Positions 5,289 to 18,059 of a stretch of 33,552 nt of DNA are shown one piece after another. The notes below the pieces were generated by a model. That model searched no databases. It saw nothing but the letters and a program-made list of their open reading frames with translations, and had not been told where the DNA came from. The translations under genes were made by a program, and so were the position numbers. The DNA comes from a virus. Its lineage: Duplodnaviria > Heunggongvirae > Uroviricota > Caudoviricetes. Location: positions 1 to 33,552 of the IMG/VR virus record IMGVR_UViG_2585427747_000002; one strand, written 5' to 3'. Position 1 is the first letter of the stretch. Each line of letters starts with the position of its first letter.

Positions 5289-6029
5289 TTAACTGGCGGT
5301 GACGGTGATTTCTGCAACCGCAGCAAACTCACCATTACCGGATACAACCGGAATGTTGACCTTGCCTGCAGCAACGCCGTTCACGGTGATGGTCATACCA
5401 CTGACCGACACGGTGGCTTTTGTTTTATCCGCTGACACCGCACGGAAGCTCTTGTCGGTTGCGCCTTCCGGCTGGAATGCCACGGTCAGCGTGGTGCTCT
5501 GCCCTTTCACTACGGAAGCACTGGCTGGCGTTACCGTCATGCCGGTGGCCGCTGTTACCGTGCTGCGATCTTCTGCCATCGACGGGCGTCCCACATTGGT
5601 GACCTTCACCGTGCGGGTAATCACTTCCTTAGCCGTCACCGCTTTACCGATACTGCTGACCCAGCCACGGAACACATCGACCGTGCCGTTCGGGAAGCGG
5701 ATTTTATAGGCACGGGTATCACCTTCATTAAACCACGCCAGCAGCGCCTGCTGCCCCTGCTCTCCGGGCATCCACGCCAGCGTGAAGCTGGTATCTCCGG
5801 CAGATTTCTGCCCCTGCCCGGTCGCAGTCCAGTCCGCATCTTCATCATCGAGATAGCTGTCGTCATAGGACTCAGCGGTCAGTTCGCCGGGCGTCAGGTC
5901 TTTAACTTTTGCCAGACGCGACCAGTCAACGTCTGAAAGCGGGTTCGCATAAGGATCACCGTTCCCCTTATAAACCCACAGTGTGGTCCCGGCACCTTTC
6001 ACCGGCATTGTTGGATTTGGTACAGGCAT
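5289..6029 (-). CDS. V: Major tail protein V
   Basis: Track ORF extends to 6059 from an upstream alternative start; lambda gpV begins [14 protein letters not shown], giving start 6029 and 246 aa. Confidence 0.92.
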
Positions 6030-10575: not shown

Positions 10576-14256
<3,681 letters not shown>

Positions 14257-14282
<26 letters not shown>

Positions 14283-14802
14283 TCAGCAACCCCGGTATCA
14301 GTTCATCCAGCGCGGCTGCTTTGTTCATGGCTTTGATGATATCCCGTTTCAGGAAATCAACATGTCGGTTTTCCAGTTCCGGAAAACGCCGCTGCACCGA
14401 CAGGGGGATCCCGTCGAGAATACTGGCAATTTCACCTGCGATCCGCGACAGCACGAAAGTACAGAATGCGGTTTCCACCACTTCAGCGGAGTCTCTGGCA
14501 TTCTTCAGCTCCTGTGCGTCGGCCTGCGCACGCGTAAGTCGATGGCGTTCGTACTCAATAGTCCCTGGCTGCAGATCTGTCTCGCTGGCCTGTCGCAGTT
14601 CTTCAACCTCCCGGCGCAGCTTTTCGTTCTCAATTTCAGCATCCCTTTCGGCATACCATTTTATGACGGCGGCAGAGTCATAAAGCACCTCATTACCCTT
14701 CCCTCCACCTCTCAGAACTGGCATTCCCTGCTCCTGCCAGTTCTGAATGGTACGGATACTCGCGCCGAAAATGTCAGCCAGCTGCTTTTTATTGACTTCC
14801 AT
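14257..14802 (-). CDS. nu1: Terminase small subunit Nu1
   Basis: 181 aa, MEVNKKQLADIFGASIRTIQNWQEQGMPVLRGGGKGNEVLYDSAAV..., matches lambda gpNu1; 3' end overlaps A. Confidence 0.95.
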
Positions 14803-14991
14803 TGTTCATTCCACGGACAAAAACAGAGAAAGGAAACGACAGAGGCCAAAAAGCCCGTTTTCAGCACCTGTCGTTTCCTTTCTTTTCAGGGGGTGTTTTA
14901 AATAAAAACATTAAGTTACGGCGAAGAAGAACGGAAACGCCTTAAACCGGAAAATTTTCATAAATAGCGAAAACCCGCGAGGTCGCCGCCC
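14803..14991 (-). promoter_or_regulatory. cos: cos site: cosB (R1 ~14827-14842, R2 ~14868-14882, R3 ~14928-14939) and cosN with the 12-nt cohesive-end sequence at 14980-14991
   Basis: Plus-strand aggtcgccgccc at 14980-14991 is the reverse complement of lambda's GGGCGGCGACCT cohesive end; upstream region matches the recalled lambda left-end sequence (CGTTTCC-type R repeats) in reverse complement. Confidence 0.9.
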
Positions 14992-15384
14992 CGTAACCTG
15001 TCGGATCGCCGGAAAGGACCCGTTGGCCGTTCTGGTCTACTTCGTAATGGGATTTAATAGCTGAACGACAAAAGTCTTGCGACCACAGTCACACAGACCT
15101 GAATACACGTCCTGTTTCTTCCACCCCCGCACAGGACTGGCGAGCATGAGGGACACCCCCGCTAACCATAAACGCGGTAAAAACCCGGTGTGCATCGTTT
15201 TTGATTATTCCCGCACACTCGCGCAGAAGGAATTCCCCGTCGAGCTACGGTCATGGTTAATGCAGGAATACGGCGACGATACAGCGCATAATGTGTCAGG
15301 CTTGAATACCTTTATCGAATCCCGGTAACGAATTCTCCTGACGTTCCAGTCAGGTGATGATATGCATGGTGAGATTCAGATATG

Positions 15385-15408
15385 AAAAAGCCCCGCTAAA
15401 AGCGAGGC
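15385..15408 (-). terminator. Putative intrinsic terminator after the orphan late gene
   Basis: On the minus strand: stem gcctcgc / gcggggc (6 of 7 bp) with 5-nt loop followed by UUUUU; lies 19 nt past the stop of the 15427..15801 gene. Confidence 0.5.
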
Positions 15409-15426
15409 CATAAATCACTTAATATC

Positions 15427-15801
15427 TTATTGAGGACGCTGGAGTAATCCGCACTGAGCGAGAGTTAGAGCAATGTCGTAAGACCCTTGCCTGTCTTTAT
15501 AGCAAGTTTTATCAACTAACTCAGCTTTGCTAATTCCGGGTAAATCAAGAATCAGATTCGCAACTTCAATTGCCCTTTGGTACAACTTACCGCCCTTTCT
15601 CTCCCCATGCTGTGGTTTTACATTCTTCAGATAACCGCTATCCGCCAGGGCGAGAAATGTTGCCCGTGGGCATATCTTCTTTCTTGACGATTCGCTTTCC
15701 GTAACCTCTGCGACAGCTGCATCCCATGCATCACGAGGATGCATTGAGCTATCAGCAACCAAATGATAAGCGATTAAAGCGGCGTGAGCGTATTGAGACA
15801 T
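15427..15801 (-). CDS. Hypothetical protein (124 aa) between Rz and cos; possible late-operon moron
   Basis: ORF MSQYAHAALIAYHLVADSSMHPRDAWDAAV...; same orientation as the late genes; no family recognised; followed by a terminator-like hairpin. Confidence 0.55.
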   Translation of the reverse strand: MSQYAHAALIAYHLVADSSMHPRDAWDAAVAEVTESESSRKKICPRATFLALADSGYLKNVKPQHGERKGGKLYQRAIEVANLILDLPGISKAELVDKTCYKDRQGSYDIALTLAQCGLLQRPQ

Positions 15802-15839
15802 AATGCATCCATATACAAAAATCTTATGATACGACTTTT

Positions 15840-16283
15840 CTAATATGAGTACTGTGATCTCACATACTCTTGCAGGCCATTCAATTGGTTAGTTATGGTT
15901 TCGATGCGCTCTCTGAGAACGAAATAATCCCGTTGAGCGGTGTCAGTAAGTCTGGGGCTGGAAGCATCATCCACGCCGGAGGCGGCGGTGGTTTTATGCT
16001 TGTCCGGACAGACTGCTTTGACGTGCAGCCACTTACGACCAGCAGAAACATCAGCACGAAGACTTTCGATAGTCGCGTTAGCATCAGCAAGCTCCTTTGT
16101 ATATCTGGCATCGAGTTCAGCTACATCACGTTGACGCTTCTGCATGTCAGTAATAATGGATGCGGCCTTATCACGCTGCTTTTTGTAAGTGATGGCGTTA
16201 TCACGGTAATGATTAACCGCCCATGACAGGCAGACGATGATGCAGATAACCAGAGCAGAGATAATCGCGGTTACTCTGCTCAT
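15840..16283 (-). CDS. Rz: Spanin inner-membrane subunit Rz
   Basis: 147 aa, [34 protein letters not shown]..., N-terminus identical to recalled lambda Rz. Confidence 0.92.
15893..16084 (-). CDS. Rz1: Spanin outer-membrane lipoprotein Rz1, embedded in the +1 frame of Rz
   Basis: Embedded [29 protein letters not shown]...[10 protein letters not shown]... with lipobox (VVSGC) and proline-rich stretch like lambda Rz1; track ORF 15893..16111 includes an upstream extension. Confidence 0.8.
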
Positions 16284-16756
16284 ACCTCAATCTCTCTGAC
16301 CGTTCCGCCAGCTTCTTTGAATTTTGCAATCAGGTTGTCAACCTTATGCTCGAACTGACCATAACCAGCGCCCGGCAGTGAAGCCCAGATATTGCTGCAA
16401 CGGTCGATTGCCTGACGAATATCACCGCGGTCTATCATCGGCAAAGCGCCACGCTCTTTAATCTGCTGCAATGCCACAGCGTCCTGACTTTTGGGAGAGA
16501 AGTCTTTCAGGCCAAGCTGCTTACGGTAAGCATCCCACCAACGGGAAAGAAGCTGGTAACGTCCGGCTGCTGTTGATTTGAGTTTGGGGTTTAGCGTGAC
16601 AAGTTTGCGAGGGTGATCGGAGTAATCAGTGAATAGCTCTCCGCCAACAATGACGTCGTAGCCGTGATTGCGGGTTGGCTGCCGTCCGTTATCCGTTCCT
16701 TCTGACCACGCCAACATATCGAGGAAAGCTTTACGCTGAGGATTAAGATTTTGCAT
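16280..16756 (-). CDS. R: Endolysin R (lytic transglycosylase)
   Basis: 158 aa, ...[44 protein letters not shown]..., matches lambda gpR. Confidence 0.94.
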
Positions 16757-17060
16757 TTTTCACCCCTGTCAGTCGTTCCCAGAAGTACGTCAGTGCAACC
16801 GAACCCATCGCACCACTAATCCCCGCCGTCGCGAGAATCATGTAAATGCTGAATCCACTTTCGATACTGATCAGGCCACCAATAACACCGGTGAATCCCG
16901 ATACCACTATCTGAGCCAGAGCATTTATCCAGCTCCACGTTGCTTTACTCTGCTTCACATCTATCAGGTAGCGGACCAGACCGCCCCAACCTGCGATGAT
17001 CAGCAAAACGAGCCAGAACGCTCCGGCAAGGCTCTCTTTTTCGTGCATATGAATAGCCAA
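16743..17060 (-). CDS. Holin (class I, 3 predicted TM segments), not lambda S-like; dual-start motif
   Basis: 105 aa, MAIHMHEKESLAGAFWLVLLIIAGWGGLV...; sits directly upstream of R and overlaps it by 14 nt; Met1 and Met5 could give antiholin and holin forms. Confidence 0.75.
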   Translation of the reverse strand: MAIHMHEKESLAGAFWLVLLIIAGWGGLVRYLIDVKQSKATWSWINALAQIVVSGFTGVIGGLISIESGFSIYMILATAGISGAMGSVALTYFWERLTGVKNAKS

Positions 17061-17163: not shown

Positions 17164-17188
17164 ATAAAAAAGCCAGCATGTAGCTGGC
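17164..17188 (-). terminator. Intrinsic terminator downstream of the Q-position gene (tR'-like)
   Basis: Minus strand: GCCAGC-uacau-GCUGGC followed by UUUUUUAUU; located about 190 nt downstream of the Q-like stop and upstream of the holin, matching the lambda pR'-tR' arrangement. Confidence 0.65.
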
Positions 17189-17369
17189 AATAGAGGGTTA
17201 AGCAATATCAACTCAACAGCTGAAGACACCCTGGCTGGGGTAGGTTGGAAGGCTACTCACCGTCCAGAAACAGAAAAGCCCAAAGTTTTAAACCTCGGGC
17301 TTGAATTTGGATTACTGCCAGTGCGTACAACATTGGCAAAATATCAGATTTACACGAAATATATGCTTT

Positions 17370-18059
17370 TTAATCCAGTTTTGCAATACTTTGCTGTGAA
17401 AATGTGGTCTTTTGTTTTGAACGTGTTTTCGTTAAAAGCAATAAAGCTTGGCTATCAAGCTGTAGAAAAATGTGCTTCATTGCAACCCAGCGTTCAGTAA
17501 ATGTCTCAGACCAGTTTTTTGATGTCACTCCCACCAGTAATGCCAGCTTCTGGTATTCATAGGTCTTACGCCCTGCCAGCTCGTTCTTCACATCCTGTGC
17601 CGCCAGCCAGATCAACTTCTTTAAGCGCTCCAGTGTCTTACTGGCAATTTTTCTTGTACCTAACAGCGCCTTAAACTCGCTCCATGCCCACTGCGTTATG
17701 GCAACCTGATGCTCCCAGCGAATATTTTCACTGTAACTCCACAGCAACCACGCTTTCTGATGTTCATCGAGAGACAAAATCGCACGCCGCCACGAAGAGG
17801 TTGAAAACTCGACCGAACTGACCAGGGCGACAGATGAACCTTTTGCGTACGACTGTTTAACGGAAATCGGCGGATTATCCAGCGTAATCATCTTGCCAGT
17901 TACCACATCCAGAATGCGCGGCTTCTTTCGTTTGTAAGTAGCAGTATCAAATTGTGCATGCTCCAGCCAGGCTTCAAGCTGGCCTTTCGTTGCTCCGCTC
18001 AAATCAGCGGTAGCCACAATGAGTTGCTCGCGGACATACTGTAAATATTGGGTATTCAT
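17370..18059 (-). CDS. Putative late-gene antiterminator in the Q position (229 aa, cysteine-free, not Q-lambda type)
   Basis: Position: immediately after ylcG and before the pR'/tR'-like region and lysis genes. No Cys residues, so no lambda-Q-type zinc ribbon. Assignment is positional only. Confidence 0.5.
   Translation of the reverse strand: MNTQYLQYVREQLIVATADLSGATKGQLEAWLEHAQFDTATYKRKKPRILDVVTGKMITLDNPPISVKQSYAKGSSVALVSSVEFSTSSWRRAILSLDEHQKAWLLWSYSENIRWEHQVAITQWAWSEFKALLGTRKIASKTLERLKKLIWLAAQDVKNELAGRKTYEYQKLALLVGVTSKNWSETFTERWVAMKHIFLQLDSQALLLLTKTRSKQKTTFSQQSIAKLD

Follow-up and report, generated by a model that had tools for sequence, protein, structure and literature searches.

Judged from its sequence, the window analyzed here (i.e., the whole stretch of 33,552 nucleotides) is a lambda-like prophage whose late genes are encoded on the minus strand. 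A gene encoding a protein of the DUF6979 family starts 38 nt past the stop codon of the spanin gene Rz and occupies a slot between Rz and the cohesive-end site; an intrinsic terminator begins 18 nt past its own stop codon. The features relevant to this gene are, in order along the minus strand:

18059..17370 (-), Q-type antiterminator
17358..17386 (-), candidate late promoter (pR'-like), just downstream of Q (TTGCAA-17-TATATT, 9/12 consensus)
17302..17276 (-), second terminator-like hairpin between Q and holin (pattern scan)
17172..17188 (-), tR'-like terminator, ~180 nt downstream of the candidate pR' (pattern scan)
17060..16743 (-), holin
16756..16280 (-), endolysin
15840..16283 (-), Rz spanin gene, upstream neighbour of the DUF6979 gene (Pfam Phage_lysis, E = 1e-38)
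15893..16111 (-), Rz1 lipoprotein ORF, embedded out of frame in Rz (ORF list)
15802..15839 (-), Rz-to-DUF6979 leader, 38 nt (alignment; sequence inspection)
15427..15801 (-), DUF6979-family gene, 124 aa, stop codon included (ORF list; ATG at 15801, TAA at 15427)
15384..15409 (-), intrinsic terminator with a 9-bp stem (6 G-C pairs), UUU loop and U-run (pattern scan and folding)
14980..14991 (-), cosN 12-nt cohesive-end sequence GGGCGGCGACCT, downstream edge of the slot (sequence match)
14802..14257 (-), Nu1 (Pfam Phage_Nu1, E = 4e-101)
14282..12357 (-), terminase large subunit

The original prediction had described a 124-aa ORF that is co-oriented with the late operon, lies between Rz and cos and is followed by a hairpin with a U-tract, and all of these elements were recovered. 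The ORF runs from the ATG at 15801 to the TAA at 15427 on the minus strand, i.e., the strand that also carries Rz, endolysin, holin, Nu1 and terminase, and it is flanked by Rz (16283..15840) and by cosN (14980-14991), the only match to this sequence in the window (0 expected by chance). The hairpin and U-tract at 15409..15384 are formed by the stem GGCCUCGCU/AGCGGGGCU (15409..15389) with the loop UUU, followed by UUUU; the fold has a predicted energy of -17.8 kcal/mol (z = -3.15) and none of 200 shuffled sequences was as stable. The interval 15329-15801 to which the prediction referred comprises the ORF, the terminator and ~55 nt further.

Upstream of the lysis genes, the promoter-like site and the two hairpins between 17386 and 17172 form a layout that we take to recall lambda pR', 6S RNA and tR'. 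The site at 17386..17358, whose placement relative to Q and the holin gene we infer, is likely the pR' from which the DUF6979 gene is transcribed. As the Rz1-type ORF shows a lipobox-like LVVSGC and a proline-rich stretch, Rz and Rz1 appear to form an embedded two-component spanin. A search of positions 14800-16300 against Rfam returned nothing beyond sub-threshold noise.

The ORF had been regarded as an orphan of unknown family, and the homology search overturned this view. The protein gave a full-length match to Pfam PF22399 (DUF6979), with 98.3 bits at a gathering threshold of 27 (E = 4.7e-28; residues 1-121 of 124, profile positions 1-127 of 127), and a match to PHROG 5039 (E = 3.1e-70; residues 1-124 of 124). 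The identical protein sequence is found in 102 public contigs and is present in NCBI and UniRef, and RefSeq labels close relatives "DUF6979 family protein". The gene is thus an already catalogued DUF, common in E. coli, from a family with no assigned function. No match to the protein was found in NCBIfam, nor in PADLOC-DB v2 at E <= 1, and ten DUF6979 relatives compared with PADLOC-DB gave noise only (E >= 0.007). The literature searched held no paper on the family.

Among 5426 complete E. coli genomes, 249 carry the DNA of this gene, in one copy each, always chromosomal and always beside the Rz "lysis protein". Only 9 of 50,697 phage records carry it, again always after Rz; the seven sequenced phages with the gene are 4A7, 1W, 3W, D2, Lambda_4C10, mEp460_4F5 and SfI. 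An exhaustive profile search found that the wider family comprises 522 representative clusters (E <= 1e-3), nearly all of which are stand-alone proteins of 120-140 aa, and a motif scan with one genome per species placed the family in 314 species of bacteria and archaea. The enterobacterial phage subfamily represents a divergent branch with ~30% identity to the main family. It scores below the main family on the Pfam model (E of 1e-28 versus ~1e-43) and has lost two main-family features, the second Cys (LGLC being replaced by LALA) and the NGQMDVV motif (RQGSYDI in the window protein). Ratios of dN/dS were 0.14-0.56 among the E. coli copies and about 0.2 against Salmonella. Together with the full-length Pfam match and the 522 clusters, these ratios indicate a real gene rather than a chance ORF, and, as judged from these substitution patterns, the DUF6979 gene is functional and under purifying selection. 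Its GC3 is 0.40, as compared to 0.49-0.61 in the neighbouring genes.

The 38-nt leader between Rz and the DUF6979 gene, which includes a weak Shine-Dalgarno sequence (GGATG at 15810..15806; AGGAA in Salmonella), is nearly invariant among the aligned copies from E. coli, Shigella and Salmonella. A simple consensus scan of the minus strand from 15802 to 16300, which weak, atypical or activator-dependent sites could escape, detected no sigma-70-like promoter with at least 9 of 12 consensus positions, and the same scan detected none upstream of a Salmonella copy (L010); inspection of the leader by eye showed nothing but a lone TATCAT that lacks a -35 element. The terminator was kept with the gene in 4A7, mEp460_4F5 and the Salmonella prophages (L010), where the sequence past the hairpin diverges; SfI has a recombinant 3' end with no adjacent terminator. 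Morons in the sense of Hendrix and Juhala consist of a promoter, an ORF and a terminator inserted in an operon. The suggestion that the gene is a moron is consistent with its terminator, its presence/absence polymorphism and its deviant composition, but not with the outcome of the promoter scan; as no promoter of its own was found, the gene would correspond to a strict moron in its terminator half only.

That the slot varies among lambdoid phages, as had been proposed, was supported. In phage 2B8 the slot is occupied by a Rha gene, and neither gene is present in most relatives. Phages of the 2B8 type and many Stx phages have only the cos-proximal segment 15316..14986 in common with the window and lack the gene, and the homology between SfI and the window is limited to 15900..15475. 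In Salmonella prophages the gene also follows Rz and is then followed by a different packaging module (KilA-N, terminase, portal_3 and Mu-F). Overall, these alignments show that leader, ORF and terminator behave as a mobile unit, which is present in or absent from otherwise similar phages.

The Salmonella copies showed two further peculiarities. In L010 and L012 (~5890-6000), approx. 110 bp of a window-type Rz 3' end lie upstream of the DUF6979 gene and behind a complete Rz that represents another allele; this Rz remnant is a recombination scar and shows that gene and Rz 3' end moved as one. A third Salmonella prophage (L011) has an IS element (rve transposase) 55 bp upstream of the DUF6979 ATG.

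The product of the gene is predicted to be a soluble, cytoplasmic and basic seven-helix protein. An AlphaFold2 model built with 12 close homologues had a pLDDT of 91.7 and a pTM of 0.87 and consisted of seven helices. The window protein has a pI of 8.4 and a GRAVY of -0.32, and the family has a median pI of 9.1, with 89% of its members above 7.5. Among 60 diverse relatives, residues A8, A11, A25, W26, A29, K42, C44, P45, L52, G56, L95 and L114 were conserved in at least 90%; A25, W26, K42, C44, P45, L52 and G56 are all present in the window protein, and Q105 and D109 correspond to Q and D in the NGQMDVV motif of the main family. The Lys-x-Cys-Pro motif (K42-x-C44-P45), which is found family-wide, caps helix 4 N-terminally after a Ser-rich loop and K-K; the conserved A-W is located in helix 2 and the conserved Q and D in the last helices.

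An analogy with lambda bor, with possible effects on serum resistance or adhesion, had been drawn for this gene and found no support in the protein. By inspection, the N-terminus MSQYAHAALIAYHLVADSS is part of helix 1 and shows neither a hydrophobic core nor an L-x-x-C lipobox, the GRAVY value and the predicted helical bundle are those of a soluble protein, and no transmembrane segment or signal sequence was found. The lack of a hydrophobic N-terminus and of a lipobox makes Bor-like surface functions unlikely. As to features of a lysis protein, DUF6979 was the sole Pfam match and the model was a soluble helical bundle.

Structure searches, which had been proposed alongside homology searches, found no convincing match in the PDB or BFVD. 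Weak matches to NusB or NusB-like proteins and to HTH domains recurred, all at noise level (TM ~0.3, Foldseek E > 1), and the NusB lead was discarded after hhalign against E. coli NusB gave a probability of 0.1%. PDB sequence searches with the protein and with a 60-sequence profile returned chance matches only (MGMT, E = 1.7; a 16-residue caspase-4 motif, E = 0.36). An Ocr-like DNA-mimic anti-restriction protein was rejected, as the window protein and its family are basic.

Main-family members of DUF6979 were found at 28 loci in IMG/VR, and the gene was called as an ORF in 22 of these. Within two ORFs on each side, these 22 loci showed a Q-like antiterminator in 11 cases, an endolysin in 6, a holin in at least 5 and a small terminase in 4. 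For example, in a Dickeya zeae prophage the DUF6979 gene abuts a Q-like gene and precedes the holin. In two prophages, a lambda pR'-like sequence, TTGAC(C/T)-17-TAAATT, is located at the 3' end of the DUF6979 ORF (L003, 7399-7427; L115, 6385-6413); there, the gene is part of the Q (delayed-early) unit and not of the late operon. DUF6979 genes are thus found at both edges of the lysis cassette, i.e., after Rz and between Q and pR', positions that differ in timing. This placement argues for an autonomous accessory function in lytic growth and against an integral role in lysis or packaging. Nor is the product a conserved packaging or lysis protein, an identification that would have spoken against the original prediction: archaea, Firmicutes and Bacteroidota have relatives that stand free of nearby lysis genes.

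We also surveyed the neighbourhoods of more distant relatives at 80 genomic loci, using crude ORF calling and clustering all neighbours within 6 kb. The recurrent neighbours were HsdS (10), HsdM (9), McrC (5), resolvase (5) and ABC/AAA_21 ATPases (5), and flanking ORFs were co-oriented with the DUF6979 gene in 109 of 142 cases. At least 15 of the 80 loci had a type I restriction-modification (R-M) system, McrBC or Zorya within 6 kb, as compared to ~0.3 loci expected by chance (Poisson p ~4e-11), where the background is an assumed one of roughly one type I system per 4-Mb genome and the survey had no matched random control, so that the value is not that of a controlled test. About 80% of the genomic loci showed no recognised restriction system nearby, and a search for a conserved partner gene across the 80 loci found none, the immediate flanks being heterogeneous.

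DUF6979 was the first gene before hsdM in four loci. In one of the surveyed clusters (L048, 5722-7711), Pfam assignments give the co-directional order STAND-TPR NTPase, DUF6979, HsdM, HsdS and AAA_21/AAA_23 ATPase, and the DUF6979 stop codon overlaps the hsdM start. Another cluster (L068, 1333-12986) reads HsdM, HsdS, AbiV, AAA_21, a 335-aa ORF with no assignment, DUF6979, EVE-AAA_5 (McrB-like) and McrC. Moreover, pre-annotated contigs placed DUF6979 near Zorya I with GmrSD and an integrase, near type III R-M with SIR2, and near GmrSD_N with Fic; in other such contigs, an HNH gene immediately preceded DUF6979, or DUF6979 lay in an integrated element of an archaeon. Plain contexts, some of them metabolic, also occurred, i.e., a radical-SAM/Zip/TrmO region, a paa cluster (L131) and a block of hypothetical genes.

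In a Brevibacillus contig (L008, 7001-12998), the DUF6979 gene is located directly upstream of Vut_1 (queuosine-precursor transporter family) and two genes with a TGT domain, one of which is fused to DUF6884. By analogy, this cluster resembles a DpdA-type 7-deazaguanine DNA-modification cluster.

The reading that we prefer, and to which we assign somewhat less than an even chance, is that the gene is a self-contained DUF6979 accessory gene at the distal end of the lysis cassette, transcribed late and with a role in restriction or exclusion. The gene would be cargo attached to the distal end of a lambda-like lysis cassette and would be the final cistron in the lysis segment, with transcription starting at pR' and antiterminated by Q; transcription from pR' as a late gene is suggested by the failure to detect a promoter of its own. 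Polymerase modified by lambda Q reads through terminators. Q-modified polymerase would likewise ignore the DUF6979 terminator, so that the hairpin would only keep unmodified transcripts, whether leaky or read-through, from reaching cos and Nu1. In the most speculative step, the protein would act on nucleic acid or on restriction complexes in phage-host or phage-phage conflict, and would modulate restriction or exclusion during lytic growth. This role is proposed because relatives are embedded in type I R-M operons or stand near McrBC, GmrSD, type III R-M, Zorya and HNH genes, and elsewhere lie between Q and pR'. With guilt by association and protein chemistry as its basis, a restriction- or nucleic-acid-directed role is the best-supported mechanistic lead, if an unproven one; the protein is unlikely to serve lysis, packaging or cell-surface conversion. 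A wider hypothesis, which we offer as possible and nonetheless rather doubtful, is that DUF6979 constitutes a widespread stand-alone restriction-conflict family, that its Lys-x-Cys-Pro cap binds or modifies nucleic acid or a restriction complex, and that temperate phages captured it twice, once after Rz and once between Q and pR', as a means of modulating restriction or excluding competitors in lytic growth.

As the hairpin would act on unmodified transcripts only, some room is left for a true moron, i.e., a gene for lysogenic conversion or superinfection exclusion that is expressed from its own weak promoter in the Rz 3' end or the leader, is insulated by its terminator and serves as a stand-alone defence of the lysogen against other phages. 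A strong terminator in a Q-antiterminated operon makes sense only for transcripts that are not antiterminated, and this terminator travels with the gene; the near invariance of the leader and the retention of ~110 bp of redundant Rz remnant in Salmonella could reflect a cis element, and the low GC3 and the relatives in defence islands would also fit. However, neither the scan nor reading by eye found a sigma-70-like promoter upstream of the E. coli or Salmonella copies, the prophage relatives inside the Q unit upstream of pR' occupy a lytic-cycle position, and the protein had no match in PADLOC, all of which make such a moron an unlikely explanation. The same basic protein might instead be a small nucleic-acid-binding regulator, HTH-like or NusB-like, that tunes transcription or antitermination of neighbouring operons (the late operon where it is phage-borne, R-M operons where it is chromosomal). 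Helices 3 and 4, with the conserved K-K-G turn, do recall an HTH arrangement, a Q-like antiterminator is adjacent in 11 of the 22 prophage loci and the gene comes first before hsdM in four loci, but the helix that would serve for recognition is largely hydrophobic, the loci surveyed showed neither a fixed partner gene nor a conserved target operon, and both the structural matches (all noise, with TM ~0.3 and Foldseek E > 1) and the hhalign comparison with E. coli NusB (0.1%) speak against it; we thus consider a regulator improbable.

Position alone might suggest an accessory protein of lysis or packaging in the late operon (e.g., a modulator of spanin, endolysin or cos cleavage), as the gene always directly follows Rz in Escherichia, Shigella and Salmonella and directly precedes the holin region in other prophages. 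This is nevertheless very improbable, given that the gene is missing from the majority of lambdoid phages that share this Rz and cos, that unrelated packaging modules follow it, that chromosomes of archaea, Firmicutes and Bacteroidota carry family members away from any lysis or packaging genes, and that the protein has no transmembrane segment or signal sequence. An autonomous DUF6979 cargo gene read late from pR' remains the interpretation that we favor.

Compared with the main DUF6979 family, the window protein is likewise a stand-alone protein of ~125 aa with the conserved A-W, K-x-C-P, G, Q and D. As cargo between Rz and cos, its gene shares with lambda bor the variable interval, the presence/absence polymorphism, the deviant composition and the flanking terminator. 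Lambda bor is located on the opposite strand, has its own promoter and encodes an outer-membrane lipoprotein, whereas the window gene is co-oriented, has no detected promoter and has a predicted soluble cytoplasmic product without a lipobox. PrrC and AbiV are encoded by accessory genes embedded in type I R-M operons or defence islands. Main-family DUF6979 genes are likewise co-oriented between or beside hsdM, hsdS and hsdR, and stand alongside AbiV, AAA_21 ATPases, EVE-McrB, McrC and GmrSD; unlike genes of the PrrC/AbiV type, they showed no nuclease, HEPN or ATPase domain and no PADLOC match, and the window copy is located in a prophage late operon and not in an R-M operon. With cargo of the stx type between Q and pR'/S, the Dickeya-type prophage DUF6979 genes share a position directly after a Q-like antiterminator and before the holin. 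The stx genes are located downstream of pR', whereas these DUF6979 genes lie upstream of the pR'-like promoter, within the Q unit; the window copy, by comparison, is found at the opposite end of the lysis cassette.

As a finding, the gene is ordinary, i.e., an already catalogued DUF in a slot that is well known to vary among lambdoid prophages. It nevertheless provides a modest lead, as no paper was found in the literature searched and the family is absent from PADLOC. The lead rests on a family that is basic, under purifying selection and horizontally spread across bacteria and archaea, as well as on its recurrent placement, both within type I R-M, McrBC and GmrSD clusters and at lysis-cassette edges in phages. 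A function found in E. coli would be the first for DUF6979, which comprises more than 500 sequence clusters.

Between the terminator and cos, we also noted a small ORF on the opposite strand (15146-15328, plus strand; 60 aa, or 83 aa if started from the TTG at 15077). It is listed as hypothetical in the annotation of phage 4A7 and is not annotated in RefSeq E. coli N3. Its region was matched by tblastn in 385 phage records, including many Stx phages, and these matches mostly covered residues 12-48 only and were mostly unannotated; no match was found in Pfam, PHROG, NCBIfam or PADLOC, and the ORF may represent conserved cos-proximal DNA instead of a gene. The stop codon of this ORF is closely followed by a short inverted repeat (CCTGAC-N6-GTCAGG, 15332-15353), with no U-run on either strand.

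Among the wider family, one apparent relative (P0128) was rejected as a repeat-protein false positive, and candidate fusion proteins (P0101, P0150, P0104 and others) were set aside, as their extra regions have no Pfam domain or their starts were apparently mis-called. One of these, a metagenomic protein of 476 aa (P0101), combines a full DUF6979 domain (1-127) with a C-terminal region of ~340 aa that has no Pfam match; if the domain in this region were identified, it could hint at the function of DUF6979.
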